The translations under genes were made by a program, and so were the position numbers. From an uncultured Rhizobium sp. (GTDB lineage Bacteria; Bacteroidota; Bacteroidia; NS11-12g; UBA955), in NCBI GenBank assembly GCA_964527775.1, contig CAZGQS010000009.1:3416-67415 (forward strand): a stretch of 64,000 nt of DNA. The letters are read 5' to 3'. Below are positions 3,027 through 19,362 of this stretch, piece after piece. The notes under the pieces are model-generated. The model saw only the letters and a list, made by a program, of their open reading frames with translations. It had not been told where the DNA came from and did no database searches. Position 1 is the stretch's first letter. Each line of letters begins with the position of its first letter.

Positions 3027-3705
3027 AAAATTAGAAAAACTTCAAATCGAACTTGAAACAGTTTCTGTTGCAATAAATCATATCGAGGATGCATCTAAGG
3101 TTGCTAAGTCATCCGCTGATATATTGAATAAAATCCCCGAATTGCTTACTGAATTAAAATCAGTTGAGGAAAAACACCGCGAAGATTTACAACAAGCTCT
3201 CAAAGAAAAAATAGATGCTATTGAAAAACAATTGCAATTATTATTGACCGAGTTAAAAGACAAAGTCAAGCAAGTAAACCAACTCATAGAGGATACAAAG
3301 AAATTAGAGATAGCAATTAATGAGTACGTATTAGAAGTGAGGAAGATAAATTTCCCGGAAAGATTAGACAAAATTGACAACCAAATTTCATCAATCAATA
3401 TTGGAGTTGGTAATCTTCAAACAACTATTCAGCGTTCACACGAAAAAATCGAAAAGGGATTTGAAGACACCAACCAAAATTTAAAAATCGGCTTTTCCTC
3501 TAACAATGAGAGTATCAAACGATCTCAGGAGAAGGTTACTTCTGATTTATTGTCACTTGCAAACGACAAGACATCTGAAATTATTCAAAAATTAACAGAA
3601 CAAAACCAGTTGTTGAAAAACGAAGTCACAACAAACAGAATAATTCAGATTGTGGGACTAACAATAATTTCAATCATTCTCATTTATGTTGCAGTCAAGA
3701 ACTAA
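3004..3705 (+). CDS. Coiled-coil protein with a single C-terminal transmembrane anchor, translationally coupled to the upstream helicase gene (23-nt overlap)
   Basis: Heptad-rich, charged sequence (EKLEKLQIELETV..., KQLQLLLTELKDKVKQVNQLIEDTKKLEIA) ends in a hydrophobic stretch IIQIVGLTIISIILIYVAV. The ATG at 3004 overlaps the stop of the helicase ORF at 3026. Confidence 0.45.
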   Translation: MPSQQVIEKLEKLQIELETVSVAINHIEDASKVAKSSADILNKIPELLTELKSVEEKHREDLQQALKEKIDAIEKQLQLLLTELKDKVKQVNQLIEDTKKLEIAINEYVLEVRKINFPERLDKIDNQISSINIGVGNLQTTIQRSHEKIEKGFEDTNQNLKIGFSSNNESIKRSQEKVTSDLLSLANDKTSEIIQKLTEQNQLLKNEVTTNRIIQIVGLTIISIILIYVAVKN

Positions 3706-3762
3706 CGTCTGGGCAATTGTAAGTAAATTTTATTTTTTTCAATAGTCAATTAAGGGGCTATC

Positions 3763-3836
3763 TATAATACTCCCTGAATCTTGGACCAGTGGTGTGGTTG
3801 AATAATTGAGTCCAACAACTGGGGAGTATTATAATC
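3763..3836. mobile_element. 74-bp MITE-like element: a pair of imperfect terminal inverted repeats related to the ends of the degraded IS3-family element at 6953-7796
   Basis: TATAATACTCCCTGAATCTTGGACCAG (3763-3789) is mirrored by ...CCAACAACTGGGGAGTATTATA (3811-3836). The same TATAATACTCCCTGAATCCTGGACCAG terminus recurs at 6953 and, inverted, at 7785-7796. Confidence 0.5.
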
Positions 3837-3927
3837 TGTTTCGCAATTAATTATCTAAGACAGGTAAATTTGAGTATGTCAAAATATCGTAAACATTAGA
3901 GCAAAGTAATCATAATTAAAAAAAATC

Positions 3928-4290
3928 ATGAACTTGAATTTTATTTTCGAATCTTCCGACCATCTTCGTTATGAAAATGGCAAAATAGTTTCAGGGCCGC
4001 ATGGTGGTGCGCCAAGAGCAGTAAAAGTAGAGCCAAACATCAGTGGCAATGAAGGCCTAACTGTTACAATGTTTAATACAGACGGGCAATTTGTAACTCA
4101 AATGGCTCCTAAGCAAATGAAAATAATCCAACAAACCGAGGAAAAGGTAGTTCTTCGCGGTTACGGACAAGATATGATGGGCCAATCATTTGATGACTAT
4201 GGTTTAACTATTTATTTTAATAATAAACAAGTCTCAAAATGTATTTTGCACATGCACGACAGGAATATTGATATTGAATATTTACCTTAA
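3928..4290 (+). CDS. Hypothetical protein (120 aa)
   Basis: ORF in the AT-rich accessory region; no recognisable motifs. Confidence 0.3.
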   Translation: MNLNFIFESSDHLRYENGKIVSGPHGGAPRAVKVEPNISGNEGLTVTMFNTDGQFVTQMAPKQMKIIQQTEEKVVLRGYGQDMMGQSFDDYGLTIYFNNKQVSKCILHMHDRNIDIEYLP

Positions 4291-4455
4291 AAAAATTTAA
4301 TGAGCCAAACGAAAAACATAACAGAACAAAGCATGACTCATTTAATGACAATAAAAGGAAATTTAAACGTTAGTGAAATCGAAGCTGAATTAATTAACTT
4401 AATTAGTTACTTAATTCTTCGTCAATCTTTTGAGATTTGATGGAAATTAGATTAT

Positions 4456-4677
4456 TTGGATGATAATAAAATTCAAGAAGTTATTAATAATAATGAAGAT
4501 GCTATGGACGAGGTAACTGATACTGCGCAAAGATTATTTTCAGGGGAATATACGCAAAATCATGCTTTATTTGGAATGCAAGTCGTTATAATGAATTTGA
4601 AATTAATGACCACCATTGATTATTCAGAATATTTAAAAAATTACTTTTCTATTACTCATAAAGTGACAATAAAATGA
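4456..4677 (+). CDS. Hypothetical small acidic protein (73 aa)
   Basis: Short ORF with no motifs; the coding call is tentative. Confidence 0.2.
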   Translation: MDDNKIQEVINNNEDAMDEVTDTAQRLFSGEYTQNHALFGMQVVIMNLKLMTTIDYSEYLKNYFSITHKVTIK

Positions 4678-4835
4678 TTTTACAGTGCATACTGACTATT
4701 AGTGATTTATTTTTTCCGTTGCACGCTTAACGTGATTTTAAAAAATCAAAATAGTGTAAAAAAAATTATTTGTGATAGTTAGTTTAATAATTATCACATT
4801 TTTATTAAGTAAAATTTTAAGTTAAATAAAAAAAT

Positions 4836-5462
4836 ATGACAAAGACAATTAGTGAAATTTTAGCAATAATTGAAAATGAAAAAGCTCGCAATCTTGGTTC
4901 TGCAGATTTTCTAAAAATGATAAATTTAAGATTTTTAAACACTCAACAAAACATTATTGACCAGGCAAATCAATATGTTCACGATGGATTAAATGCTTTT
5001 CAAAACGATCAAAATGAGATAGCCAAAATATACTATCAAAAAGCTATTGATTTATTTCCAACATGTAATTCTTATTTTTTATTGTCAATGGTAGAATATG
5101 ACGAAGGTAATTATTATCAAGCTTGGCGTTGGTCTATTGCGGCATCGATGTTTATTAATAAAGCTGAGTTTAATTATTGGAACGCAATCCTGTTAAGAAA
5201 TTTTTGTGTTTTAAACTTGCTTTCCACGAACAACGAAGATTGGCAGAATCAACAAAACAATTTGCATGGAATTATAAAGGATTACATAATTCCTAATTTC
5301 GAATTCTATGAAACTCAAAGAAAAAATTATGGATTAACAGAACTATTTAAAACTGAATTTGAGAATTTAGAAATAGATAAAAATACAATACAATCTTTGC
5401 TTCCTCCAATTGGTTGGATATACAATTTTATCCAAGATAATAAAACTGAACTTCCGAATTAA
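4836..5462 (+). CDS. Hypothetical protein, possibly with TPR-like helical repeats
   Basis: The segment YYQKAIDLFPTCNSYFLLSMVEYDEGNYYQAWRWSIAA resembles a TPR-like helical hairpin. A 7-bp inverted repeat sits upstream at 4771-4798. Confidence 0.4.
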   Translation: MTKTISEILAIIENEKARNLGSADFLKMINLRFLNTQQNIIDQANQYVHDGLNAFQNDQNEIAKIYYQKAIDLFPTCNSYFLLSMVEYDEGNYYQAWRWSIAASMFINKAEFNYWNAILLRNFCVLNLLSTNNEDWQNQQNNLHGIIKDYIIPNFEFYETQRKNYGLTELFKTEFENLEIDKNTIQSLLPPIGWIYNFIQDNKTELPN

Positions 5463-5569
5463 TTACATAATTAGCAGTCTTATTCGAATATTATATTAAA
5501 AGCAAAATGTACGAAAATACAAAAAATGGGAATAGATGTAACATATTAGAATAAATAAAAATAAAAACT

Positions 5570-6883
5570 ATGGATTTTTCATTTCACATACAACAAGGAC
5601 AAAAACTATTAGAAAAGAAAGATGCTATTTTAGTCAAAAAAGCTCTTGAACATTTCATAAAAGCCAATGAAATGACCGATGAAGAAGATATTGGAAAACC
5701 AAAAATACTGTATCTATTAGCATTTGGAAATTTAATAATTGGACAGATCGAACAATCATATAGACTTGCATTTAAAGCGAAACGTAGTATAGATGTAGCT
5801 ATTGAAAACAGTATCTTTTCAATGAATAATATGCGACAAATGCTTGGAGAAAATGATATTGATGCTTTGATCCATCATATTGAAGAAAAATATGCTCAAG
5901 TTGTTTATCAAATAGATACAGAAGATGACAATTTTGACGAAAATGTTTTAGATTTTTCACATATTAGTCAAATGTATCCATCTGTTGTCACTAAAGATAT
6001 AGAGCCAGAATTTTCAATTAACGAAACGGAATTGGCTAAAATGAGCTTTACTGAACATTCTGCACTTTCTAAAAAATGTGCAGAAAATGGTGATCTTGAA
6101 TCTCTTTTAACAATTTCAAAGTATCGCTTTATACATGGTTCAGCGGGAACAAATGAATTTGATTTCCCCATTATGTGTTATTATTATGGACGGTTATCCA
6201 GGATTGAAGAATTAAAAGAGTTATTAATCGAAAAACAATTCCATTTGTTTTTACTGCCAGATTCTTGCAAAGAATTAGCCCAAAATTTACTAAATATTGG
6301 TTTGAAATTTCCACATTTAAACGAACAAGAAATTTCTTACCTTCAACAAAAATACTGTGACTCCAAAACTTACCAAGTGTTAGACGCCATTATGTTCGAC
6401 AGCGATAAACTTTCAAGACCAATTAAAAAATTTGATACTAATTTACTGCGAACTAAAAACACTGAATTTTCAAGGGATTTATTGCTGGATGTCTTTAGCC
6501 ACTTTTCAGCAAATGAGGACCTTGATGACGGATATTCTGAACTTTATGTATATAGTCGAATTAAAAATAATATTATTCGCAAAAAACATGAACACGTTGG
6601 CTTGGGAGAATATTGCATATTCGATCCAATTCTTTCAAATGAATTCTATAACATTTTGAAGAGAAAATACGGAATAGAATGCGCAGATTATTTCGCAGAA
6701 ATACTTTCCTCAGATGACGACTTAGAGAGTTTTAAAACAGATGACTTTTACATTCTTGATGCAAAAAGAATAGAAGACGTAGCGAATGACTATTTTCAAA
6801 ATCCTTCTAAAGTTGAAGACTTGAAGATTGAAATTGCTCAACTATGGCTAAATAAAATTAACTCACGTGAAATAAAATTATAG
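5570..6883 (+). CDS. Hypothetical protein (437 aa) with a helical-repeat N-terminus
   Basis: Long ORF ending 70 bp before the IS-end repeat at 6953; no catalytic motifs recognised. Confidence 0.4.
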   Translation: MDFSFHIQQGQKLLEKKDAILVKKALEHFIKANEMTDEEDIGKPKILYLLAFGNLIIGQIEQSYRLAFKAKRSIDVAIENSIFSMNNMRQMLGENDIDALIHHIEEKYAQVVYQIDTEDDNFDENVLDFSHISQMYPSVVTKDIEPEFSINETELAKMSFTEHSALSKKCAENGDLESLLTISKYRFIHGSAGTNEFDFPIMCYYYGRLSRIEELKELLIEKQFHLFLLPDSCKELAQNLLNIGLKFPHLNEQEISYLQQKYCDSKTYQVLDAIMFDSDKLSRPIKKFDTNLLRTKNTEFSRDLLLDVFSHFSANEDLDDGYSELYVYSRIKNNIIRKKHEHVGLGEYCIFDPILSNEFYNILKRKYGIECADYFAEILSSDDDLESFKTDDFYILDAKRIEDVANDYFQNPSKVEDLKIEIAQLWLNKINSREIKL

Positions 6884-7017
6884 CTAAAAGCTAAAAATCA
6901 CGAGAATACATATTATATCAGTGCTGTCCGGTTAACTTTTTTTCAATCCCTTTATAATACTCCCTGAATCCTGGACCAGAAGTTTAGTTAAAAAATCACT
7001 TAATTTGACTAAACGAT

Positions 7018-7194
7018 ATGACCAAACAAACCCGACGCAAATTCACGCCTGAATTCAAGGCAAACGTTGCATTAGAAGCAGCCAAAGACCAAATCACCTT
7101 GGCTCAGTTGTCGCAAAAATTTGAAGTAAACGCTGTAACCATTTCAAAGTGTAAATCAGAGTTTTTGGCGAATTTTATCCAGTTCGAATTTTAG
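7018..7194 (+). pseudogene. IS3-family transposase OrfA N-terminal fragment (helix-turn-helix region), truncated
   Basis: The translation MTKQTRRKFTPEFKANVALEAAKDQITLAQLSQKFEVNAVTISKCKSEFLANFIQFEF* matches the conserved IS3/IS150 OrfA N-terminus (...RRKFTPEFKAKVALEA...LAQ...V....IS.WKKEFL). The conserved Trp is replaced by Cys and the frame terminates early. Confidence 0.6.
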
Positions 7195-7465
7195 GTTCAC
7201 TTACATTTCCAATGTAAAAGAAACGGAAAATAGCGAACCAGAGGTGCCTGTGGAGAAGCTTCATTATGCGCAAATTGGCAAGATCAAAGTAGAGCTAGAC
7301 TTTCTAAAAAAAAGTGCAAAGAAATTGGGAATACCCGAGAGCGAATAGAAGCCGTCAAACTGAAACGAAGTCCCACTTCGCAGACAATGCGAATTGCTTT
7401 GTATTCCACGCAGTTCGTTGTACTATGCACCAATACCTGAAAAGCCTGAGAATCTGAAGATGATG

Positions 7466-7720
7466 TCATTGATGGATAAATACTTAACATACCATCCCAC
7501 AGAAGGGGTTTTATCGATGGTGGAAAAGGACGTGCAACAGACAATATTTTGATCGAGAGCTTCTGGAAAACTATCAAATACAATCACATTTACCTCAATC
7601 TTTGCGATACAGGTCTTGAACTATTTAAGGAGTTCAGAACTATATCAAGTGTTATAACTAGAAAAAACACCAAGGCATTGGGATGAAACCCAATAATGCA
7701 TATTACAAATCTTTAAAACA
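7466..7720 (+). pseudogene. IS3-family transposase OrfB (DDE integrase) C-terminal fragment, frameshifted
   Basis: The fragments ...GKGRATDNILIESFWKTIKYNHIYLNLCDTGLELFKEFRTI... and ...KNTKALG.NP match the ESFWKTLK...Y.T..E...I..YI..YN..R.HQALG tail of IS3 OrfB, interrupted by stop codons. Confidence 0.5.
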
Positions 7721-7824
7721 AAATGCTGCCTAATACAGCGCAAAATATTAAATTAGCATCAATAACCTTTGGGCCCGACAACTAGGGAGTATTATAGTAT
7801 TTTACATGCAACCAAAATAGTTAG

Positions 7825-10800
7825 CTATATTCTTGTCAATCGTTGCGATTCGATTTTGTTAATATCTTGTAATGTTATGTTATTTTCAGTTACTAAATTT
7901 TCAAGAAATGCGCGGTTTAGTAATGTTATATCATTAGACTTTGCCAAAATTGTTGCTGATGAACTGTAATCATTATTGGTTATTATCATCAGTTTAAATT
8001 GTTCTTTAAATCTGTCCTCATAATAATTTTTTCCTGTGTAAATTTCTTGTATTGCTTCAATTCCAACTAAGGATTTTGTTTGTTTAGCTTGAATAAGATA
8101 ATTTTCTCCCTTTTTTAAAAGCACAATATCAACACCCTTGTCATTAGAATACGGTGTTAGATATACTTCAAAACCTTGTGTTTTGTATAATGCTCCGATT
8201 GTTGCTTCAAACAAATTGGGGTTTAACCGATCAATTTCAGTGAGGGTTTGAAATTTGGGTTTACTTTCGGTTTTTGTTCCAAAAATAGTTCCAAATATTT
8301 CATCAGGTGTAATTTCAGCTTGTTCTGTTGGAAATAAAGTATTACTTGCCAAAGATTTTTTGTTATTCAATAAAGCATCAAGAACTTCATCAAAAGATTT
8401 CATTCTATTACCTTCTTGGTCTTTCATTTCTTCTGGAAATATTGCCATAGGATAATAGACAAAAACATCTTTTTGTTGACCTATACGATAAGCCCTGTCA
8501 GTCGCTTGTTCTTCTTTCGCAGGATTCCAATGCCGTGTGTAATGAACAATATGATTGGCTTTGGTTACATTCAAGCCAACACCTGCTGAAATGGGCGACA
8601 TAATGATCACATTGAAGCCTTCATCCTCCTGAAAACGGTCAATGGTTTGTTGTCGGCTTAGTTTAGATTTCCCTTGAAGCTGTTTTGTAGTTGGTGTATC
8701 TCCATTTATAATACTTGTGAAAACTCCAAAGGTATCGTAAACAACTTTCTGCAACATCTTTTGAGTTTCTCGCCTGTCAGCAAAAATAATTACTTTTTCA
8801 TTTTTGGATTTTATATCCGCTAAAATACCCACGGTAGTTTGAAGTTTAGAGGAACTATTTATAAGTTCATCACTAGAAAACTTCAAAATTTGACTTTCTA
8901 ATAAATACGGATGGTCCGAAATGTCTCTAACTGCCCAAAGTGATTTCAATTTTTGATTTCTTTTTTCCACACCTTCCAATTCTGAATCATTCGCCATTTC
9001 AATTTCCTGCTTGTATCTATCTATTTGAACGGTCGGCATCACTCTTTTAATTCTTGAATTTTGATCATCGTGCTTTTTAGGCAAATCTTTTGCGACATCA
9101 CTTTTTAATCTTCTTTTTATAAATATTCCAATGTTGTTGCGAAGTTGTTCCGTTAATGTTCTTATGTCTGTATTTTCATCACTCAAAGGTTTTTGGTATT
9201 CTTTCGCAAAATCTTTGGCATTGCCTAAAAGTCCTGGAACTGCAAAGTCCATTAAACACCAAATATCAACCAAGGTGTTTTCTACTGGTGTTCCTGTAAT
9301 TGCAATTTTAAAATCGGCTTTCAATGCTTTACTTGCATTGGTTATAAGCGTTCCTGGTGTTTTTATTTTTTGTGCTTCGTCCAATGCTATTATTGCAAAA
9401 TCAACCAATCCTAAACTGATTTGATAAGACCTTAGTGTTTCATAATTAGTTAAAATAATTTGTTTGAATTGTAGCCGTTTTGCATCTTGTTGGTTATGAA
9501 TTGGGTTATTTTCTTTTGTTAAAGATACACCACTATACAGTTTACACAATGGTAAATTCTTTGGACTAAAAAATTTCTCATATTCGTTTTCCCAATTTTC
9601 AAGCAAGCTAACGGGGGCCACAATTAAGTATGGTTTGCCTTCATTATAACTTTGGCTGTGCCATTCTATGAAATACAAAAGTTGCAAGGTTTTACCTAAA
9701 CCCATATCATCAGCAAGCAATCCACCAGCAAAATTTTCTTTAAACAAAGATTGCAGCCAAGAAACACCTTCTTTTTGATGTTCTTTTAAGGTGATGTTAT
9801 TTTTTAAATTTGGTATTTCATAGAAGCTATGTTTCAAATTTTCGGGCAACTCATTTCCATTTGAAAACTCGGTAAGTTCTGCATTTTCTTTAATTATCAG
9901 AACTTCGTGATCTGTTTGCTTCTCATGTTTTATTGGTTTTCTTGGATTTTCAAATTGCTTTTTCGCAATCTTGATAAATTTTACAGCATCTTCAATTGGA
10001 ATTTCAGCGTTTTCCCATACAACGGTTTGCTTTTTTTCATTTATAGCTTTTTCCTTCTGCTCAATGAAGTCATTTAGTTTTTCAGGAGTTTTGAAATAAA
10101 TTTTCTTTTCTCCGTGAACCTTATCTTTTATTACAATGCCTGGAATCCATTGTGATTTATATGGACTTGCAAAAGGGTAGAACTTTGGACTATAAACGCC
10201 AATTTCTTTTACTCTGTCGCTGTAAAAAACAGTAAAATCAATTACATCATCATCAAAAAACAATTCTGGGTGCTCAATGATTTTCTGAATTGCTCCTTGG
10301 TCTGAAATTTTTCTATGAGTTTTAATTTTTCGAAGTTCAACTTTCTGATTTTCTGTAATAACTACTCTTGTTGTTTCGCCATTGTTTGAAGAAACAGGAT
10401 AAACATCACGTATCATTGGCAACTTATCGAAAGTATTGGTAAAACCTATTGCGTTATCAATTTCAACTGATGGTATAATTTCAAAAATGCCATTATTGAA
10501 ATCAACATCCAATTTAATTTTTTCAGGAACATATAATTCCTGATTGTTTAAAAATTGCTCCAAGGTCAACCCACTTTCTTTTGAAAGTGATTTTAATTCT
10601 GATAATTTTTTAAGATTAATAAAATTCCCTTTTTCGCTATCGGATAATTCGTTGAATTCGTCAATCGCTTGACAGAGCAAATACTGGTTTTCGGAAAGTA
10701 GATACACGTTTTCTTCTACTTGTAAAATTGCTCCATTTCGAATTGTCTTTAATCTTGTTCCGTTCGGAGCAAAGTCATAAAATCCATATTTGAACTTAAA

Positions 10801-11094
10801 AGAATTATGTGTTAAAATTCCGCTTGATTCTACAAAAATCTCATAAGGATAACCTTCAGGCAAATCCAATATTTGCTTGTCTATATCATTTAACCTTAAA
10901 ATATCAATACTATCAACTTCACAAGTGTGTTCCGTGTAATCCGCTAATCCGTTATCATACAATTCTTTAAGAATTGCAAGTTGAGATAGATTTTCTGATT
11001 GTAGTTTTTTCCATTCAGAAACAGAAATATTGCTCTCAGTTTCATTTAGGAAAAAGAAAGAAAATTTGTTGTTAGCTTGAATATATTTAAACAT
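7825..11094 (-). CDS. ZorD-like SNF2-family helicase/ATPase (1089 aa) with an N-terminal domain of about 420 aa of unknown function and a C-terminal Mrr-like PD-(D/E)xK restriction-endonuclease domain
   Basis: SNF2 motifs: LKEHQKEGVSWL...LLADDMGLGKTLQ (motif I), IIALDEAQKIKTPGT (DEAQ motif II) and HYTRHWNPAKEEQATDRAYRIGQQKDVFVY (motifs V/VI). The C-terminus FEATIGALYKTQGFEVYLTPYSNDKGVDIVLLKKGENYLIQAKQTK fits the Mrr_cat pattern (S/T.DxGIDhh...hhIQCKR). This is the last gene of a tightly overlapped four-gene operon. Confidence 0.8.
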   Translation of the reverse strand: MFKYIQANNKFSFFFLNETESNISVSEWKKLQSENLSQLAILKELYDNGLADYTEHTCEVDSIDILRLNDIDKQILDLPEGYPYEIFVESSGILTHNSFKFKYGFYDFAPNGTRLKTIRNGAILQVEENVYLLSENQYLLCQAIDEFNELSDSEKGNFINLKKLSELKSLSKESGLTLEQFLNNQELYVPEKIKLDVDFNNGIFEIIPSVEIDNAIGFTNTFDKLPMIRDVYPVSSNNGETTRVVITENQKVELRKIKTHRKISDQGAIQKIIEHPELFFDDDVIDFTVFYSDRVKEIGVYSPKFYPFASPYKSQWIPGIVIKDKVHGEKKIYFKTPEKLNDFIEQKEKAINEKKQTVVWENAEIPIEDAVKFIKIAKKQFENPRKPIKHEKQTDHEVLIIKENAELTEFSNGNELPENLKHSFYEIPNLKNNITLKEHQKEGVSWLQSLFKENFAGGLLADDMGLGKTLQLLYFIEWHSQSYNEGKPYLIVAPVSLLENWENEYEKFFSPKNLPLCKLYSGVSLTKENNPIHNQQDAKRLQFKQIILTNYETLRSYQISLGLVDFAIIALDEAQKIKTPGTLITNASKALKADFKIAITGTPVENTLVDIWCLMDFAVPGLLGNAKDFAKEYQKPLSDENTDIRTLTEQLRNNIGIFIKRRLKSDVAKDLPKKHDDQNSRIKRVMPTVQIDRYKQEIEMANDSELEGVEKRNQKLKSLWAVRDISDHPYLLESQILKFSSDELINSSSKLQTTVGILADIKSKNEKVIIFADRRETQKMLQKVVYDTFGVFTSIINGDTPTTKQLQGKSKLSRQQTIDRFQEDEGFNVIIMSPISAGVGLNVTKANHIVHYTRHWNPAKEEQATDRAYRIGQQKDVFVYYPMAIFPEEMKDQEGNRMKSFDEVLDALLNNKKSLASNTLFPTEQAEITPDEIFGTIFGTKTESKPKFQTLTEIDRLNPNLFEATIGALYKTQGFEVYLTPYSNDKGVDIVLLKKGENYLIQAKQTKSLVGIEAIQEIYTGKNYYEDRFKEQFKLMIITNNDYSSSATILAKSNDITLLNRAFLENLVTENNITLQDINKIESQRLTRI

Positions 11095-12514
11095 TTATTC
11101 CTGCTATATTTTTAAACCAATACTCAAAAACTTGTTCCCATCTTAAATCTCCATCATTATGAGTTAAACGACCTTCTATGTTAGTGTCATTTATACTGTA
11201 TCCAGAACGATAAACAAGCATTGGCATTGAGCCATTTCTTAATTCATCTACACTTTCTAAACGATAATTTAAATTTGGTTTATTATTACCATTCATTTTG
11301 TAAGCATAAAAAGCATAACCAGCATCACTAAATTCAATGAGCATATAGTCTCCTATGTAAAGTATAAATGCCGACACTTCTCTGTTGCTTGAAACAACTT
11401 GAAATCGCCCGTCTAAATATTCTACAATTCTTCTGTCTCTCTTGAGAATATATTTAGTTTGAGTCGGTCCGTAAACTTTAAAAGAAACTCTATTCTTTGA
11501 AGCCACTCTAAGCCAAAAACGTTTTCTTCTTTCATCATTGATACAAACTCTAAAAAAAATATCAATGAAATGTTTAGCAATCCATTCGTCTAGAATATTT
11601 CTTGCTTCAATGATTTCACTTCGTTCAATATCAGTTGCATTTTCAAAAGCACTCCAATTTGAAACATTGCTTGGGTCACCTATTTGAGTAAAAGCAATTC
11701 TTTTTATACTGTCTTGAAGTTCGGAAAATTCAGGCTTATTCGCTTGTATAATTATTTTACTGATTAATCTTTTATTTGTAATTGAACTATTATGTTTAAG
11801 TAAGGCTTGATTCAAATTTTCAATTTCAGTTGATATATTATTTTTGTTCCTTTCGTAATAATTTACAATAACTTTAGAGAAATAGGCATAATCAAACCAC
11901 GATTCAGGAACACCTAATATTTTTGTAGCTTCTTGAATTGGCTTATTAAGTTTTGCTATGGTGTCGCCTAATTCCGAATCTCCATCTTTTAAGTTGAAAA
12001 ATATTTTGTTTTTTTTGAATAAGGCTAATGTATTTCGATTGCCTGAATAATTAACTAATTTTTGACTGATGAAATGCTCTAATTGCTCTAATGATTTCGG
12101 ATATCTTGTTTCCCAATTCCTCAAAAAGCAATCTATCAAACCAACCAAAAATGAATCCCGCCAGTTTGATTCTAACAATGTCAAAGCATATTTCAACTCG
12201 TTTTCATTGATAAAAATGGAAGTTAAACTCTGTTCTGAATGATTCAAGGAATAGGTAAGCGTTCTTAATTCTCTTCGTTCGAAACTCACATCTGTTATTA
12301 TAATAGATTTTTTAAATTTTCTAAACACTTGAGGTATCAGATTATTCCCTGAAAATGTAAACGAATTTGCTCCAACTTCTTCTGATATTTTTTGAAGTTT
12401 GTCAATTCTATGTTCATTCAAAGATGTAACGGCAATTGGAATAATCTTTTGTGCCGTCTGCTGAAATGAAGTCGGTGAAAAATGAAATTGCAAAATGTCC
12501 TGGATCGTTAACAT
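11087..12514 (-). CDS. Hypothetical 475-aa protein occupying the ZorC position of the Zorya-like operon (unverified possible EH-signature-like protein)
   Basis: It overlaps the upstream gene by 1-3 nt and the downstream SNF2 gene by 8 nt. I recognise no motif. It contains a single LEH triplet, and its size is comparable to ZorC. The assignment is positional only. Confidence 0.4.
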   Translation of the reverse strand: MLTIQDILQFHFSPTSFQQTAQKIIPIAVTSLNEHRIDKLQKISEEVGANSFTFSGNNLIPQVFRKFKKSIIITDVSFERRELRTLTYSLNHSEQSLTSIFINENELKYALTLLESNWRDSFLVGLIDCFLRNWETRYPKSLEQLEHFISQKLVNYSGNRNTLALFKKNKIFFNLKDGDSELGDTIAKLNKPIQEATKILGVPESWFDYAYFSKVIVNYYERNKNNISTEIENLNQALLKHNSSITNKRLISKIIIQANKPEFSELQDSIKRIAFTQIGDPSNVSNWSAFENATDIERSEIIEARNILDEWIAKHFIDIFFRVCINDERRKRFWLRVASKNRVSFKVYGPTQTKYILKRDRRIVEYLDGRFQVVSSNREVSAFILYIGDYMLIEFSDAGYAFYAYKMNGNNKPNLNYRLESVDELRNGSMPMLVYRSGYSINDTNIEGRLTHNDGDLRWEQVFEYWFKNIAGINV

Positions 12515-12515
12515 A

Positions 12516-14051
12516 CTAGTTTCTTCTTCCGTTCAACTTACTCAGTTGTTCAGTTAGTTCTTCTAAAATATCTTCTTGTTTTGACGATGCTCCTGCAAGT
12601 GATTCCGCTGTCTTGGTCAATGCATCTGTGTATTTAACTAAATAAGTTTCAAGACTTCCTCCCACAGTCGCTTGGTAATCTTTTAACCCAATTGTTATTT
12701 TTCCAAAAATTTCTTGTAGTCCTTTTTCTATAATTTCAAATTTCTGTGCGTAATCGGCAGAAACAATTTTTGCTGTTTCTAAAGATTTTTGAATTTCAGT
12801 AATTGTATTGGAATTGTTTTGTAAGAACTGGTTTGAGTGCTTAGAAAACTCGTTTTGCGATTCCCCGAATTTACTTGATGATGAGTTTATTTCCTGAGAA
12901 ATATTTCTAAAAGTTGAAATCACCGTTTCAAGTTCTGATTGAGCTTGATTAAGTTTTGAAATGCTACCGTTTACTTCCATGGATAGTCCATTCATTTTTT
13001 CAATACTTAAATTGAAAGCACTCAAAAGATTTTCAGAAACTTGTAAGTTTTTAGATTGTTCGGTTAATAATGTTTGTTGTCCAGTTTGTAAACCTCCGAC
13101 CTGTTCTCTCAATATTTCACTCATATGTTCAACCTGCATTTTCATTTGGTTGGTAGATTCTTCGGATTGAGAAAGTGTTTGCCTAGAAATTTGTTGCACA
13201 ACGTCTTGTAAACCCCTAAAGTTCTCATTGAGGTTATCTGTCATTTTCTGCAATTTTAAGGGGAAATCCGATAACGATCCACCTGCTTGACCAAGTAATC
13301 CAGCCAATCGTTCCATTTCATTTTTAGTATCTCCGCTCATTGAAGTTTTAAATTCTTCGACCATTTTACCCATAGATTCCTGCAGATCTTTAACAATATT
13401 TTGGGTCATATCAGTTGCTGGGTCTTTGAGTTTGTTGCCTAAACTCTCAATTTCGGCTTTCACCAATTTTAACTCAGCTACCACTCCTTCTGCTGGATTA
13501 TTTAAAATTTCCTCAAAACCTGCTGAAATCGTTAATGCTAAATCAGAAGAAAATGTTTGTAAGGATGTTGATTGCTTTTGAGATTCTTTATAAATATCAC
13601 GGAAAATATTTCCTGGTCTAATTGTGTTCCCGTTTTCATCGATAGAAGAGAAATTATTTCTTAATTCTTCAATGACTTCGATAAGTTTGTTTATGGCTTT
13701 AGTTTCATCACTTAAAACTCCTTTTTCATTTTTGTTTTTTACAAATGCTATTCGTTTTGAAAAGATAATGGAAAGCGCTATTCCAACTATAGAAGCAAAA
13801 AATGCTGTTTTTAATCCCTGCAGTAATGTTGGAATACTTTTTTCAATGTCATCAGGATTAAAGAACCATAAGCCGTAAGCAATACCACCAAAAGTCCCTA
13901 AAATACCTATTGTAGTAAACATTGAAGGAATTAATTCTAAGTCATTTAGATTTACTTCACTGTAGTTTTTCTTCGCAATATTGAGTACATAGATTCCATA
14001 AATAAGATATGAAAACATCGATATTGTGATAAAGATTTCAACTATGTTCAT
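12516..14051 (-). CDS. ZorA-like MotA/TolQ/ExbB-family proton-channel protein: a compact three-TM N-terminal domain followed by an approximately 410-aa coiled-coil cytoplasmic tail
   Basis: TM2-TM3 signature IPSMFTTIGILGTFGGIAYGL...LLQGLKTAFFASIVGIALSIIF, compared with ExbB/TolQ LLGLLGTVWGI...GIAEALLATAIGLVAAIPA. The remainder is long heptad-rich, low-complexity helix. The start overlaps the stop of the upstream MotB-like gene by 4 nt. Confidence 0.7.
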   Translation of the reverse strand: MNIVEIFITISMFSYLIYGIYVLNIAKKNYSEVNLNDLELIPSMFTTIGILGTFGGIAYGLWFFNPDDIEKSIPTLLQGLKTAFFASIVGIALSIIFSKRIAFVKNKNEKGVLSDETKAINKLIEVIEELRNNFSSIDENGNTIRPGNIFRDIYKESQKQSTSLQTFSSDLALTISAGFEEILNNPAEGVVAELKLVKAEIESLGNKLKDPATDMTQNIVKDLQESMGKMVEEFKTSMSGDTKNEMERLAGLLGQAGGSLSDFPLKLQKMTDNLNENFRGLQDVVQQISRQTLSQSEESTNQMKMQVEHMSEILREQVGGLQTGQQTLLTEQSKNLQVSENLLSAFNLSIEKMNGLSMEVNGSISKLNQAQSELETVISTFRNISQEINSSSSKFGESQNEFSKHSNQFLQNNSNTITEIQKSLETAKIVSADYAQKFEIIEKGLQEIFGKITIGLKDYQATVGGSLETYLVKYTDALTKTAESLAGASSKQEDILEELTEQLSKLNGRRN

Positions 14052-14770
14052 TTTTGTTCAATTTTTTTAAGTGCTTCGTTAATAATGTCTTCGCTAGTTG
14101 TTACAATTCTAAATTCAACTCGTCTTGATTTGTCATTGTCAATTGGCTGCTTGCTGCCAAATGCTATTTTAAATTCTTTATCTACAGTTCGTCCGTATGA
14201 AAGACCATTGGCTGTCAACCAATACTGTAATCTATCTTTTTTATTTGGTTCTAGATTAATAAAACAATCTTGTTGTCTCAGAAATCCTAAAACATTTCTT
14301 GCTCTGTTTTGAGACAATTCCATATTGTCAATGTAGGGGTCGCTCGTTTTATTAATGGGTTTAGTATTTGTGTGTCCTTCGATACGAATTTCTGCAATTT
14401 TATCAATGTATTTATCTTGTAAAACAACTCTTAAATATTTAGGCAGAAACTCTCTTAAAATACTTTGGAAAGTAGTAGTAACATCTGATTTTCCTTCATC
14501 AAACAAAACCTGTGGATTTGTAAATTTTATTGACAAATCATTGTCAAGTTTTAAATTCCATTTTGCAAAATCTTTTTTAAAAGCTTCATTTAATTCGATA
14601 TATAAAGCGACTTTTGATTCTTCATAGTCCTTAAATATTTGATTTTGTTCCTTCTGTCGCTTTTCCATCAATGCCATATAAGAAATAGACATGAAAAGAA
14701 AAATCACCATTAAAACTGTCATAAGGTCGGCCAAGGGAATCCAATGACTTTCTTTCTTCGTTCCTGACAT
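14048..14770 (-). CDS. ZorB-like MotB/OmpA-family protein (N-terminal TM plug with the conserved Asp, plus a C-terminal OmpA-like peptidoglycan-binding domain)
   Basis: HWIPLADLMTVLMVIFLFM matches the MotB IAYADFMTAMMAFFLVMW motif, including the conserved Asp. IRIEGHTNTKP...NMELSQNRARNVLGFL matches the OmpA_C signature (GHTD...N..LS..RA..V). It is the first gene of the minus-strand operon. Confidence 0.75.
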   Translation of the reverse strand: MSGTKKESHWIPLADLMTVLMVIFLFMSISYMALMEKRQKEQNQIFKDYEESKVALYIELNEAFKKDFAKWNLKLDNDLSIKFTNPQVLFDEGKSDVTTTFQSILREFLPKYLRVVLQDKYIDKIAEIRIEGHTNTKPINKTSDPYIDNMELSQNRARNVLGFLRQQDCFINLEPNKKDRLQYWLTANGLSYGRTVDKEFKIAFGSKQPIDNDKSRRVEFRIVTTSEDIINEALKKIEQK

Positions 14771-15303
14771 TTATTTCTCTGTATTATTTAAGAATGTGGA
14801 ATGTAATTTTGTGCGATGGGTTGCAATTCTTTTGGTTTTGCGAAAGCGTATAATTGCCTATTCATTTTTTTAGTCTTTTTAATTTAGCATTGTCTATGTT
14901 TTAGTGACAGCTAATTCAGTTATACTCTCAATGATAATTCGCTTTGGGATTCAATAGGGCCTTTTTGCGCAATTTCATTTAACATATAATCCCTCCAAAA
15001 TTAATCAAAATCAAGAAAATAACCATATCGGTTGATAATAACCTGCAATGGTAAATAATAGTCAACTAGCATCCAACAATCATCTCAAATATTGTCTACT
15101 CAAAAGGAAAAATAAATTAAAACTCCATCGGCATTCACGCTGCAATGACCGTCTCAGAAATGATTAACAGTTTCGATAAAGCTGATTCCATTAGACCAAG
15201 ATGGCGATCACTTTTGGATCATTAGCAAATGTGATGGTCTATGCAGCTGACTCTGCCGGAGTTGAATATGTGATCAACGGTTTCGACAAATTATCCGGTT
15301 AGA

Positions 15304-16083
15304 TTAGTTAAAAAATTGCCCTCGTTCAGTTGGTTTAGATAAATTCATCCAATAAATGACCACAGGCTCCAACTCTTCTGATTTTCCATTGGAATTTACA
15401 TCTTTACGAGCAAAAATGTATAAATAGTCATTAATGTGATCATATTCAGATTTAATCACATTTAGATTTTTGGGAATTAGTTCAGATATTTTATCGCCTG
15501 ACATATCAAATAGATATAACCTTCTCAAGTCCTTATCATTGATAAAACTATCCTTATTTGTATCTTCGTCATACGCTGAAACCATGATGTAATCTCGTAA
15601 TATACGTTTACCTTTTAATGTATCTATTGTTTCGGTTGGATAATAAATAGTGTTTATTAACAATGGTTTATTAAACAATGCTTTTTGTTTTTTTTGATTT
15701 AGATCATGGATGTATACATTTACCATTTTACGCCCATAAACTGCTCTAAAACCCGGAATTAAGTTATTATTCCAGTTATCGTTTGTTATACCTGGGGCGG
15801 GATAAGAGTAATGAAAATCAGGTGAACCAGAATAGAATCCATCAGTGTAATTGTTTTTCAGCATCTGAAAAATAGGCGTAATTCGAATGTTTGGATATCT
15901 AGTGATTAAAATGTTTTGGGGACGTGAGGCTACATTACTTGCATTTGATGGAATCTCATTGCAATCAACACTCGAACCCTCTGTTGCTCTTGTAAGAGTT
16001 TGTCTCCTACTCTTCTTTTGATTATCAGAACAGCTCAATATTAAACATATACTTAAAAGGCGAAAAACGATTGTGATCTTCAT
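15304..16083 (-). CDS. Hypothetical lipoprotein (signal peptide plus lipobox Cys)
   Basis: The N-terminus MKITIVFRLLSICLILSCSDNQ has an LSC lipobox; no other motifs. Confidence 0.45.
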   Translation of the reverse strand: MKITIVFRLLSICLILSCSDNQKKSRRQTLTRATEGSSVDCNEIPSNASNVASRPQNILITRYPNIRITPIFQMLKNNYTDGFYSGSPDFHYSYPAPGITNDNWNNNLIPGFRAVYGRKMVNVYIHDLNQKKQKALFNKPLLINTIYYPTETIDTLKGKRILRDYIMVSAYDEDTNKDSFINDKDLRRLYLFDMSGDKISELIPKNLNVIKSEYDHINDYLYIFARKDVNSNGKSEELEPVVIYWMNLSKPTERGQFFN

Positions 16084-16239
16084 TTTATTAGGATTAGTTT
16101 TTTTATTATTCGGATTGCAGCGCTTAGTTATTGATTGGGCTAAAATAGTATTTTACCTATGTATTAAAAAGGGAATTCAGATGAATCTGTTATTAACCCC
16201 AAGGCCAACAACACAACAAATATTATATTCGTATTCATA

Positions 16240-16704
16240 ATGACCATTCAAAACAAGTATATTTTTTTTATTTATAATTCAGATAAAAACGATCTCACAA
16301 CTGAAAAAATAATGAGATGGCGGGATCTGTTCATTAATGAAAACATATACATTGACAGTTGCGGTATTGATTTAGCTCGTGATGAATATTCAGACTATTC
16401 AGACGCTATTAATATAATTTTAAAGTCAACAATTGAAAAATCTGATGTAGTATTTTTACTAATCACAGAAAACACACACCTAGATTCACAAACAATGGAG
16501 CATTTAAAAATAGCCATTGAATGCCGCAAGAAAATTATTGGATTTGTTTCTGAAGCCATCAAAAATCTAAATGATTACTGGCTAAAATTCAGACTGAATT
16601 CTATATTACCTTTGCAAGACGATGTAATTTTAAATCAGATTAAGAATATCAGAAATTCAACTTTTCCAATCCAAAAAGACCGTGATATTCTTGATATCTC
16701 TTAG
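16240..16704 (+). CDS. Hypothetical 154-aa protein with a possible TIR-like / flavodoxin-like fold (STIR/TIR_2-like pattern)
   Basis: KYIFFIYNSDKND resembles the beta-A strand of TIR (xVFISYxxxD). GIDLARDEYSDYSDAINIILKSTIEKSDVVFLLITENTHLDSQTMEHLKIAIE follows the TIR_2 spacing D..G...I...I..S...VVL.S..S..S....E...A. The resemblance is weak and rests on recall only. Confidence 0.3.
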   Translation: MTIQNKYIFFIYNSDKNDLTTEKIMRWRDLFINENIYIDSCGIDLARDEYSDYSDAINIILKSTIEKSDVVFLLITENTHLDSQTMEHLKIAIECRKKIIGFVSEAIKNLNDYWLKFRLNSILPLQDDVILNQIKNIRNSTFPIQKDRDILDIS

Positions 16705-16980
16705 ATAAAGATCATAATAACTCTTGAATAAGTCCGCATTTTTTAATTTATCACCGTACATTAAAAAATTGTAAACATATATATCCTCATTCAGATTGTT
16801 GTTAAATCTAAATTTATCCAAATCGAAGGTTTTTGATATGAAATTGCGTAGATACAGCGGTGAAAGGACTTTCAATTGCATGGCATATTTTATCACCTCT
16901 TCAAATTCTTCTTTATTTAAATTATGTTTACAACTAAACAGAATTACCATGGATTTATAATCTTTGGGATACTTTTTCAT
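16657..16980 (-). CDS. Hypothetical protein (107 aa)
   Basis: ORF overlapping the 3' end of the previous gene by 48 nt; no motifs. Confidence 0.25.
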   Translation of the reverse strand: MKKYPKDYKSMVILFSCKHNLNKEEFEEVIKYAMQLKVLSPLYLRNFISKTFDLDKFRFNNNLNEDIYVYNFLMYGDKLKNADLFKSYYDLYLRDIKNITVFLDWKS

Positions 16981-17580
16981 TCTTTTGTTCTTTATTACTA
17001 AAACTGAAATAAATCACTCTCCTACATCAAAAAAATCTTATTGATGTTCAGTTCATATTCTATGCAAAACTATGAGGTTTGTAATTAAATTCAGTTTCAA
17101 GATTAAATGTGTACATATATCTTTTTGGTACTGCAATACTACAATTCATCTATGCAGTTTTACTTCACACATTTAAATGTGTTATTTTCAATTAGCTTCG
17201 AGATAAATTTAGAAATCGTAATTTAACCACAAATGCCCACCCCATCACCCATATCACAGAAATTCAGATCCCTCAAAAACTTCTTAAAATCGAAATTCCC
17301 GAAGTCGAAAAAAATATATTTACTGCGGTTTTGCCTATTCTTCATGAGCTATGCAATGATCATTTTCGTTGATCTGTATTATCTTGGAAATAAAAACCAT
17401 TGGAACACCTTTGACAAAATACGTATAAAGACCTACCTTAAGTCGGTGATTTATGTAGGATATACCACCCCTCCAATCGGGCCGCTCAGAATGATGCACT
17501 ACTCCAGCCGACTTGGAAATGCATTCTTAAAAAAGGAAATGGCCAATCCGCCGCTAATATTGTAGCAGAAAACCAATAAC

Positions 17581-18537
17581 ATGCCTCACACTCCTATTAT
17601 CATTGCCACCAACACCATTAAATCTGCCTTCCTAGGCCTGGCCATTGGTGATGCGCTCGGGGTTCCGGTGGAGTTTAAGTCAAGAGAATACTTGAATGAA
17701 AATCCGGTGACAGATTTTATGGGATTTGGAACGCATTCGCAGATGCCAGGCACCTTTTCCGACGATGCATCGATGGCGTTTTGCCTTGCCGAAAGTTTGA
17801 TTCAAGGATATGAATTAGATCGTACAGCACAGTATTTTCTTAAATGGTATAAGGAGCAATACTGGACGGCACGCGGTAATATTTTCGATATTGGACTTAC
17901 AACCCAAGAAGTCATGCAAAAACTCGCCGATGGTCATTCGCCTAAACACAGCGGCAAATACACCATCAACAGCAATGGAAATGGTTCCCTCATGCGAACA
18001 TTGCCCTTGGCATTTTACACCGCCAATCTGCCCATCCACGAGCGCTTTCGAATCACCACGGAGGTTTCCAAAATTACTCATGCGCATGCCTTATCCTATA
18101 TCAGTTGCTTCTATTACACCGAATTTGCCCGTGAACTCATCCAAGCCAAAACCAAGGAGGAGGCAATCCAAAATCACATCCTGAACTTCACGAATTTCCT
18201 CTCTACCATATCCCTTGATGAAGACACCCTGCCCTACTTCGCGCGGCTGCTTTCAGCAGATTTCGCCAGTTTAACGTCCCCCGAAATAAAAAGCACGGGA
18301 TTTGTGATTGACACTCTCGAAGCCGGCATGTGGTGCTTCTTGAACACCTCCAATTTTTCGGATGCCGTTCTCAGGGCCGTAAACCTCGGCAATGATACCG
18401 ATACCGTGGGATGCGTTACCGGGGGACTTGCCGGACTTTTTTACCCCCTCAGCTCCATTCCCGCCCATTGGATTTCGCAACTCGCCCGCTCTGAAGACAT
18501 CGTGAATCTCGCAGAGCGTTTAGAGTTTAGAGTGTAG
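17581..18537 (+). CDS. ADP-ribosylglycohydrolase family protein (DraG/ARH-like)
   Basis: The N-terminal signature AFLGLAIGDALGVPVEF (the GDALG.P.E motif of pfam ADP_ribosyl_GH) is followed by conserved Asp/Thr-rich metal-site regions (NDTDTVG). Confidence 0.8.
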   Translation: MPHTPIIIATNTIKSAFLGLAIGDALGVPVEFKSREYLNENPVTDFMGFGTHSQMPGTFSDDASMAFCLAESLIQGYELDRTAQYFLKWYKEQYWTARGNIFDIGLTTQEVMQKLADGHSPKHSGKYTINSNGNGSLMRTLPLAFYTANLPIHERFRITTEVSKITHAHALSYISCFYYTEFARELIQAKTKEEAIQNHILNFTNFLSTISLDEDTLPYFARLLSADFASLTSPEIKSTGFVIDTLEAGMWCFLNTSNFSDAVLRAVNLGNDTDTVGCVTGGLAGLFYPLSSIPAHWISQLARSEDIVNLAERLEFRV

Positions 18538-18598: not shown

Positions 18599-18892
18599 AT
18601 GAATTTGGACAACCCAACTTTAGAAGCCATCAAAGAGTACTTTAGAACTCGACCAGTTCTTAAAGCATATTTATTTGGCTCCTATGTTAGGGGACAAGCT
18701 GACAACCAAAGCGATATTGATATTTTAGTCGACTTAGATTATTCTCAAAGGATCGGTTTAGGTTTCGTTCAAATGCAAATAGATCTCGAGCGAATTCTTA
18801 AAAAGAAAGTAGACTTAGTATCTTCTAACAGCCTGTCAAAATATATTAAGCCAATAGTTGAGAACGAAAAGAAGCTAATTTATGCGCGGTAG
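18599..18892 (+). CDS. Nucleotidyltransferase-domain protein (MNT-type antitoxin of a HepT/MNT pair)
   Basis: The Pol-beta NTase motif GSYVRGQADNQSDIDILVDL is present. Confidence 0.7.
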   Translation: MNLDNPTLEAIKEYFRTRPVLKAYLFGSYVRGQADNQSDIDILVDLDYSQRIGLGFVQMQIDLERILKKKVDLVSSNSLSKYIKPIVENEKKLIYAR

Positions 18893-19100
18893 ATTAGGAG
18901 ACAATGCTCGGTTGAAACATATACTTGATGCAATTGTCGAAATAGAATCCTATTTAATCGACACTGATTATGAAGCATTTCTGAACAATTCAATAATGAG
19001 ATTGGCTTGCATAAAACAAATGGACTTCAATCTAAAGAATGTAATTCGAGAAAATTGCATAAATTGCATTCATGTTAACCAGAGCAGAAATAGAAAGTAA
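18882..19100 (+). pseudogene. HepT/DUF86-like toxin fragment (truncated at 72 aa; lacks the RX4HXY motif)
   Basis: The N-terminus RLKHILDAIVEIESYLIDTDYEAFL matches the DUF86 start (..L.HIL.AI..I..Y). The ORF then ends prematurely in low-complexity sequence. Confidence 0.4.
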
Positions 19101-19362
19101 ATTAAGGCAAATGAAGCCGGAACTTGCTTACAAGTTTCACGTTAGTCAAATTGGCTATTTCGGCTCATTCGCAAATGACAAACAAACTGAAAGTAGCGAC
19201 CTAGATATACTTGTTGAATTTTCAGAGCCAATCGGCTGGGAGTTCTTCACACTTGAACGTTTTCTGGAACAATCATTTGGAATCCCGATTGACCTCGTAA
19301 CAAAAAATGCTCTTAAAGAAAGAATCAAAGACCCTATTTTAAACCAAGTCAACTACATTTGA
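19072..19362 (+). CDS. Nucleotidyltransferase-domain protein (MNT-type antitoxin)
   Basis: FGSFANDKQTESSDLDILVEF is the GS...SD.D motif. Confidence 0.7.
   Translation: MLTRAEIESKLRQMKPELAYKFHVSQIGYFGSFANDKQTESSDLDILVEFSEPIGWEFFTLERFLEQSFGIPIDLVTKNALKERIKDPILNQVNYI

Follow-up and report, generated by a model that had tools for sequence, protein, structure and literature searches.

The window, as we call the whole stretch of 64,000 nucleotides analysed here, spans positions 3,416 to 67,415 of contig CAZGQS010000009.1 (assembly GCA_964527775.1), deposited as an uncultured Rhizobium sp. and placed by GTDB in the Bacteroidota. Its minus strand carries four genes that we assign to an anti-phage system of the Zorya family, in the order zorB-zorA-zorC-zorD (Table 1). 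All four open reading frames (ORFs) had been delimited by an initial annotation made from the letters alone, and all are intact. The short overlaps of 1-8 nt by which that annotation had them joined are present between zorB and zorA (4 nt, ATGA) and between zorC and zorD (8 nt); zorA and zorC are separated by a 1-nt spacer. Published Zorya operons are arranged zorABCD (type I), zorABE (type II) and zorGABF or zorFABG (Hu et al., 2025, PMC11946911). Hereafter, A-B-C-D is the canonical and B-A-C-D the reversed order, and L and P numbers are our handles for loci and for ZorA relatives.

Table 1. Features of the zorB-zorA-zorC-zorD locus, in window coordinates
Feature	Position	Strand	Remarks
zorB	14048..14770	-	240 aa; first gene of operon
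zorA	12516..14051	-	511 aa; second gene
zorA 5´ part: compact motor head, residues 1 to ~140	13632..14051	-	AlphaFold2 model, Foldseek, region scores
zorA 3´ part: long helical cytoplasmic tail, residues ~141-511	12516..13631	-	Region scores, AlphaFold2 model, Pfam
zorC	11087..12514	-	475 aa; third gene
zorD	7825..11094	-	1089 aa; fourth gene
SNF2 ATPase core of ZorD, residues 434-880	8455..9795	-	Pfam SNF2-rel_dom, Helicase_C
Mrr_cat PD-(D/E)xK nuclease domain of ZorD, residues 954-1067	7894..8235	-	Pfam Mrr_cat
Limits of mobile four-gene cassette	7807..14815	-	Nucleotide homology with 22 other genomes
Terminator-like hairpin and T-run	7725..7739	-	86 nt 3´ of zorD stop; consensus scan only

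ZorB has the build of a Zorya ZorB, with one N-terminal transmembrane (TM) helix, in which Asp15 is the ion-coupling residue, and, after it, an OmpA-like domain for peptidoglycan binding (Pfam OmpA 34.1 bits, cut-off 27.2). What had been described as a MotB/OmpA-like protein with a conserved plug Asp thus keeps its OmpA domain and its conserved Asp, which is located in the TM helix rather than in a plug. Residue conservation was checked in 24-32 homologous systems, and D15 is invariant (32/32 homologues). PADLOC gives ZorB 270 bits with ZorB2 and 196 bits with ZorB1. We rejected this preference as proof of type II affinity, since the ZorB proteins of canonical-order relatives also score best on ZorB2. 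Because the HMM labels do not separate the types, the claim of type II affinity rests on pairwise identities, trees and PDB comparisons. ZorB scores 128 bits against the type II ZorB of Sulfuricurvum kujiense (8vvi_A), compared to 27 and 23 bits for type I ZorB (23 being 8qyd_F). Its identity with the ZorB proteins that genuine zorA-zorB-zorE loci encode is 42-48%, compared to 35-38% for its canonical-order (A-B-C-D) relatives. As judged from these sequence comparisons, ZorB is of type II-like affinity.

ZorA shows the MotA/ExbB-like TM head and the long helical cytoplasmic tail that are characteristic of Zorya. The MotA/ExbB-like channel of the initial annotation is better named ZorA, given that PADLOC, PDB and Foldseek all return ZorA as the best match. 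The PADLOC models score up to 126 bits, with ZorA2 as the best label, and the best PDB matches are ZorA chains (54 bits for type II vs 25 bits for type I). In the AlphaFold2 model, the head (predicted local distance difference test score, pLDDT, 79-90) is made of TM1 (residues 3-28), TM2 (35-62) and TM3 (69-109). TM1 and TM2 are joined by a loop of ~6 residues (29-34), leaving no membrane-proximal cytoplasmic domain of the kind found between these helices in the large heads of type I ZorA (8QYD, 8VVN). A compact head together with a type II-like ZorB is the combination seen in type II. The compact three-TM head of ~100 aa that was noted initially is therefore real, and is conserved in dozens of loci. 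The protein is also shorter than its E. coli counterpart, as had been claimed (511 vs 729 aa, with a tail of ~400 vs ~500 residues); the tail would measure ~60 nm if it formed one continuous helix. Five head residues, G49, T53, G56, A83 and S87, are invariant in 31/31 homologues.

The two parts of ZorA resemble different Zorya types. For the modelled head, the best Foldseek match is the whole resolved chain of type II ZorA (8vvi_C; TMt 0.77, root-mean-square deviation 2.7 A, 33% identity), compared to TMt ~0.25-0.29 for type I ZorA (8qyd_A 0.25). In sequence, residues 36-110 score 55-85 bits with type II ZorA vs 27-46 bits with large-head type I ZorA, whereas residues 111-511 score ~0-8 bits with type II vs 100-336 bits with large-head type I. 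Per-residue BLOSUM values along the tail are ~0.8-3.5 against type I and below ~1 against type II; only at residues 261-320 and 361-380 do both types score about equally. The similarity switches from type II-like to type I-like near residue 140. The precomputed Pfam family of the protein is PF28082, ZorA-like_t1.

At this switch, immediately after TM3, AlphaFold2 places a small beta-hairpin (residues ~134-145, window ~13617-13652, minus strand; pLDDT ~60), which in the model could be the physical joint between head and tail. Among reversed-order systems, the ZorA tail varies in length (504-591 aa) with a head that is always compact (L067, L071, L075 zorA, L021). In L021 (3-1802), from a metagenome-assembled genome (MAG) of Pseudomonadota, the tail may contain an internal duplication, to judge from tblastn segments that overlap.

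The third gene, whose 475-aa product had been called unknown, encodes ZorC. Pfam EH_Signature, the domain of type I ZorC, scores 62.6 bits (cut-off 27.5), PADLOC ZorC1 scores 63 bits, and the protein, a predicted DNA binder, aligns with E. coli ZorC (PDB 8r68). R330, W334, E394, H452 and W459 are invariant in 30/30 homologues, and D327 is kept in 27/30, with N or E in the other three, making it the sole key residue of the system that varies. The counterparts in E. coli are D332/R335/W339/E400/H443/W458 (PMC11946911).

ZorD is likewise a type I effector, that is, a SNF2-family ATPase that often carries an Mrr-like nuclease. Here, an N-terminal domain precedes the ATPase, and the nuclease domain is C-terminal. 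SNF2-rel_dom (183 bits), Helicase_C (51.5 bits) and Mrr_cat (67.7 bits) all exceed their Pfam cut-offs, and PADLOC ZorD1 (PDLC00631) covers the full length (residues 3-1078) with 1356 bits. The match to E. coli ZorD (PDB 8qy7, 445 bits) is restricted to residues 282-924, with the E. coli protein ending at aligned residue 924. The Walker A motif GLGKT is at 466-470 and the DEAQ box at 572-575, GKT and DEAQ being invariant (27/27), and the Mrr motif D989, Q1002, K1004 is invariant wherever the domain is present (24/24 homologues). The Mrr domain, which is missing from the E. coli ZorD of solved structure, had been proposed as a departure from type I. It is an already recognised ZorD feature and not a new one, since PADLOC describes its ZorD1 model as "SWI2/SNF2 helicase, Mrr-like nuclease", and a passage of Mariano et al. 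(2025; PMC11890865) cites Doron 2018 for an Mrr-like domain in ZorD. One reversed-order lineage (ZorA P0151, 42% identical; L028 10950-13802, L029 4853-7705) has a 950-aa ZorD without Mrr_cat, indicating that the domain was gained or lost within the variant. We also considered whether the helicase belongs to the Dpd system of 7-deazaguanine DNA modification and rejected this, as the DpdE models reach at most 459 bits on ZorD vs 1356 for ZorD1, reflecting SNF2 homology. Apart from a DpdF-like helicase, PADLOC found no Dpd match, and no dpdA-C, among nearby large ORFs.

The position of the B gene before the A gene, which the initial annotation had pointed out, is conserved, and is tied to the architecture of the ZorA head. 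Searching ZorA residues 1-240 against 1.8 billion representative proteins gave 2656 relatives. These fall in two head classes, one compact, with TM2 near residue 40, and one large, with ~60-90 extra residues between TM1 and TM2. The extra segment corresponds to the membrane-proximal cytoplasmic domain of E. coli ZorA, which comprises helices H1-H3, a beta-hairpin and calcium sites (PMC11946911). B-A-C-D order was found in 20/20 genome loci with enough DNA (22 loci in all). A metagenome scan with a ZorC alignment as seed contributed another 26 B-A-C-D loci, in which the head is compact throughout (TM2 offset -2 to +6), and 6 A-B-C-D loci, in which it is always large (TM2 offset +74 or +75). Compact-head relatives with tail similarity (P0145, P0149, P0151, P0164, P0179; 41-49% identity for the three aligned in full) are all B-A. 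In four of the five, zorC follows and, where the contig reaches, zorD; the P0179 contig ends after zorA. The large-head relatives P0154, P0161 and P0167 are all A-B-C-D, with an Mrr-bearing ZorD. Compact-head relatives without tail similarity (P0189, P0223, P0235) are encoded in zorA-zorB loci, followed in two cases by a ZorE2 match (142-189 bits), the third contig ending inside zorB. Their ZorA proteins score 267-385 bits with ZorA2, which, together with the ZorE2 genes, marks these loci as genuine type II. Overall, ~50 reversed-order loci are all compact and 10 canonical-order loci all large, with zero exceptions. An assembly error was considered as the source of the B-A order and rejected, as the order is kept in ~50 independent assemblies.

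The genes of these systems have discordant histories. In bootstrapped neighbour-joining trees of 17-18 reversed-order and 7-9 canonical-order systems, ZorB splits the gene orders in 100/100 bootstraps, with identity of 35% between and 58-62% within classes. The split is found in 0/100 bootstraps for ZorD (53% between, 55-58% within), ZorC (39% and 41-47%) and the ZorA tail (47% and 50-53%). The trees of these three segments are congruent with one another, and in them canonical L057 and L066 group with reversed L053, L059, L070 and L067. A neighbour-joining tree of a 105-residue region of the ZorA head is too star-like to resolve more than the compact vs large split. When type II sequences are added to the ZorB tree, the canonical-order clade is recovered at 95% bootstrap, and reversed-order ZorB proteins intermix with those of type II. 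Pairs of loci show the same discordance. L057 (A-B-C-D) and L059 (B-A-C-D) share 35% identity in ZorB and 41% in the head, but 69% in the tail, 54% in ZorC and 77% in ZorD. L057 and L024, both A-B-C-D, share 72% in ZorB and 76% in the head, but 51% in the tail, 38% in ZorC and 57% in ZorD. The ZorC and ZorD of the window are equally similar to those of canonical-order and of other reversed-order systems (ZorD 49-54%). Together, the discordant trees and the pairwise identities lead us to conclude that repeated exchange has brought effector halves from one motor type to the other.

We therefore propose, with a probability of roughly 80%, that the locus is an intact Zorya anti-phage system of B-A-C-D order and a natural mosaic of a type II-like motor and a type I effector half. 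The comparisons above show that the motor half (ZorB and ZorA residues 1 to ~140) is type II-like, and that the tail, ZorC and ZorD make up an effector half of the Mrr-bearing type I lineage. The best PADLOC label for each gene (ZorB2, ZorA2, ZorC1, ZorD1) is a mixed set that may fall outside the strict type rules of PADLOC and DefenseFinder. The type I hallmark seen by the initial annotation is thus borne out by the ZorC and ZorD effectors and by the PADLOC and PDB matches. Of the two identities it had offered, a divergent or novel Zorya subtype survives, as a variant of type I, while a distinct MotAB-coupled system does not. This variant is widespread, mainly in Bacteroidota, and apparently undescribed, rather than a new kind of system. 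A literature search, incomplete in what it covered, found no description of a zorB-zorA-zorC-zorD variant or of Bacteroidota Zorya.

Several points weigh against the proposed mosaic. The tree samples are modest, with only four type II ZorB sequences; the grouping of S. kujiense ZorB is unstable, and monophyly of reversed-order and type II ZorB has 32% bootstrap. Per residue, the edge of type II over type I in the head region is modest, and the AlphaFold2 tail, although helical almost throughout, is modelled with low confidence (pLDDT ~37-76). Two generic families are missed, MotA_ExbB marginally by ZorA (22.8 bits, cut-off 22.9) and MotB_plug by ZorB (17.2 bits, gathering cut-off 24), such that the threshold check of the MotB/OmpA call is passed by OmpA only. 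The best NCBIfam matches, ZorB2 and ZorA2 for the first two proteins and the type I models for the last two, agree with a mosaic, but none of the four proteins reaches the equivalog cut-offs of these narrow models (ZorB2 128/400, ZorA2 60/700, ZorC 36/490, ZorD 585/1500, as score/cut-off). In the canonical order, zorB is located between the tail-coding part of zorA and zorC, which is a difficulty for the transfer of an effector half between orders. The exchange may have been one of motors or one of effectors, with either order as the ancestral one.

An unlikely alternative is that this is an ordinary type I Zorya in which the B-A order and the small head are quirks of a single ancient branch that diverged vertically, with no exchange of modules and without functional meaning. 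The effectors ZorC and ZorD are exactly the type I set, canonical-order ZorB is also best on PADLOC ZorB2, and the survey of Hu et al. (2025, PMC11946911) mentions non-canonical arrangements that were filtered out. However, the link between order and head is perfect across ~60 loci, the orders are separated by ZorB in every bootstrap and by tail, ZorC and ZorD in none, and the identities among L057, L059 and L024 fit no single tree. In addition, the head and ZorB are nearer to genuine zorA-zorB-zorE systems than to canonical-order relatives.

Exchange could also have happened only once, if a type II Zorya had its ZorE replaced by a captured tail-ZorC-ZorD segment and the intermixing of effectors were an artefact of fast evolution. 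We regard this as quite improbable. It would account for the resemblance of the motor half to type II and for the single architecture common to all reversed-order systems. It does not account for tail, ZorC and ZorD trees that are congruent and interleave the orders within groups, nor for identity gaps as large as 77% vs 57% in ZorD, and the same artefact would be needed in three independent segments. Moreover, the sampled type II loci are A-B, so that the swap alone gives no B-A order. PADLOC found no match to HNH or to ZorE, the sole soluble effector of type II, in the cassette or the ten nearest large ORFs.

The resemblances and differences that the mosaic proposal has to accommodate can be set against three known groups. 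With the type I system of E. coli NCTC 9026 (PMC11946911; 8QYD, 8R68, 8QY7), the locus shares four components, the ZorB TM Asp, the long helical tail, the D/R/W/E/H/W network of ZorC, the ZorD SNF2 core with its DEAQ box and presumably the logic of sensing, rotation, recruitment and degradation. In contrast to E. coli (A-B-C-D), besides the reversed order, the shorter ZorA without a membrane-proximal domain and the weakly similar ZorB (23 bits, 8qyd_F), ZorC has 475 rather than 560 aa, and ZorD has a shorter N-terminal part and an added Mrr_cat. A homologous tail, ZorC and ZorD are found in large-head, canonical, Mrr-bearing type I systems (L024, L030, L032, L056-L068; ZorA 572-653 aa), which interleave with the reversed-order systems in the tail, ZorC and ZorD trees, have a SNF2 and Mrr ZorD that is 49-54% identical and fall in the same Pfam ZorA-like_t1. 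These differ in their A-B order, ~74 extra TM1-TM2 residues and a ZorB of a separate clade (35-38% identical). Type II systems (S. kujiense 8VVI, PMC11890865; L033-L035) share the compact head, a ZorB that is 36-48% identical and the ZorA2/ZorB2 best labels. Unlike the window, they are A-B and have a ZorE HNH nickase in place of ZorC and ZorD, and their tail is unrelated (~0-8 bits).

If the system works as E. coli type I Zorya does (Hu et al., 2025, PMC11946911; Mariano et al., 2025, PMC11890865), from which we draw the following model by homology, five ZorA and two ZorB would assemble in the inner membrane as a 5:2 rotary motor powered by ion flow. Phage entry would perturb the envelope, causing the OmpA-like domain of ZorB to grip peptidoglycan, and ion flow past Asp15 would turn ZorA. 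The ~400-residue helical tail would relay the signal and recruit ZorC, the EH-signature DNA binder, and ZorD. ZorD would then destroy the entering DNA, probably by SNF2 translocation that feeds the C-terminal Mrr-type PD-(D/E)xK nuclease. In this model, the tail of ZorA, not the head, would specify the effector partners.

Current models of Zorya derive from a single type I system and a small number of type II systems, whose gene order is always canonical. The locus points to a minimal type II-like motor that can be coupled to ZorC and ZorD, with the boundary of the exchangeable halves just after ZorA TM3, near residue 140. Natural chimeras of this kind bear on which part of ZorA recruits effectors and on the need for the membrane-proximal domain. 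The variant may be overlooked or mislabelled by pipelines that depend on gene order or on models specific to one type, and similar proteins are annotated publicly as 'MotA/TolQ/ExbB family' or 'methyl-accepting chemotaxis protein'.

A broader proposal, to which we give about even odds, is that Zorya consists of two freely recombining cassettes, the motor and the tail plus effectors, and that the zorB-zorA order marks a class, not described before, whose type I effectors are driven by a minimal motor of type II style. If true, the choice of effectors to recruit would lie with the ZorA tail alone, signalling to ZorC and ZorD would not require the membrane-proximal domain with which type I ZorA binds calcium, and pairs with near-identical effector halves and different motors (L057/L059) would be ready-made natural swap experiments. 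Neither half is interrupted on the DNA when B precedes A, so that one crossover close to zorA codon 140 would be enough to exchange a half in its entirety. One may speculate that this is the reason for the B-A order, an attractive one.

Comparison of window positions 1-24000 with L001-L022 by blastn showed that nucleotide homology stops within ~50 nt of the operon ends and that the flanks differ at each locus, which indicates that the cassette moves as a unit among Bacteroidota genomes and into varied contexts. All four genes have dN/dS of 0.05-0.14, and, with the key residues invariant except ZorC D327, the system is apparently intact and working-looking, as far as sequence can tell. For ZorA, the clade of the window alone has >120 database clusters (90% identity clustering) that are 76-100% identical and nearly all 508-511 aa. 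Named clusters are from Emticicia, Sphingobacterium, Pedobacter, Elizabethkingia, Chryseobacterium, Empedobacter, Flavobacterium columnare, Myroides and Moheibacter, and thus include a fish pathogen (F. columnare) and clinical genera (Elizabethkingia, Chryseobacterium, Myroides). The cassette, otherwise confined to Bacteroidota, is also present in contigs binned as an uncultured Akkermansia MAG (L017, Verrucomicrobiota) and a Pseudomonadota MAG (L021), representing either horizontal transfer across phyla or binning error.

That the four genes are instead a MotAB/TolQR/ExbBD-type envelope energiser beside a SNF2 repair or remodelling helicase, as the generic OmpA and borderline MotA_ExbB matches in Pfam and the generic public annotations might suggest, is very improbable given that they travel as one cassette with different flanks in each genome, that Zorya models and solved Zorya structures are the best match for all four proteins, that defence-type genes are nearby, and that no flagellar, Tol-Pal (tolA-pal) or TonB (tonB) partner genes, the neighbours that would have undone the initial reading, adjoin the cassette in the window or any related locus inspected.

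The operon is part of the low-GC portion of the window (~28-36% over 1-17000, vs ~38-47% across most of the remainder), which agrees with the AT-rich island described initially. The toxin-antitoxin neighbours described there are present as well, as MNT/HepT genes, and no insertion sequence relics were found. A sigma-70 promoter scan was uninformative (27 sites vs 34 expected), the consensus being unsuited to Bacteroidota. Most flanking ORFs have no PHROGs, Pfam or PADLOC match. Five ORFs of 110-437 aa in the AT-rich island, at 4836-6883 (+), 15304-16083 (-), 16240-16704 (+) and 17233-17565 (+), have no match in these databases except a weak PDC-M13A hit on 4836-5462, and are possible uncharacterised defence genes.

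Defence-type genes are among the neighbours. At 18-3026 (+), open at the left edge of the window, a DEAD/Helicase_C protein of at least 1002 aa matches PADLOC DpdF (226 bits) and PsyrT (176 bits). Together with a 233-aa coiled-coil ORF that comes next, it spans 18-3705 (+). The helicase is 4.8 kb from the operon on the opposite strand and, among the flanks compared, is shared only with Moheibacter stercoris (L015), where the distance between a related helicase and the Zorya cassette is 2.5 kb but their relative orientation is the opposite one. Type I restriction-modification genes adjoin related cassettes in L028, where they form an operon, and L030. On the other side of the window operon, 18599-19715 (+) holds two MNT-type nucleotidyltransferase ORFs (97 and 96 aa) and a HepT-like RNase (118 aa), arranged as tandem MNT/HepT modules; a 72-aa ORF without a match (18882-19100) may be a degraded HepT. 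A truncated DUF1016/YhcG PD-(D/E)xK nuclease gene follows at 19971-20363 (+), in which the N-terminal domain is reduced to its last part and the nuclease domain to its first. An ADP-ribosylglycohydrolase (242 bits) is encoded at 17581-18537 (+), 2.8 kb upstream of zorB. An ADP_ribosyl_GH gene is also found directly after zorD in an unrelated canonical-order locus (L031 7563-8339), which may be a coincidence or a recurring neighbour.

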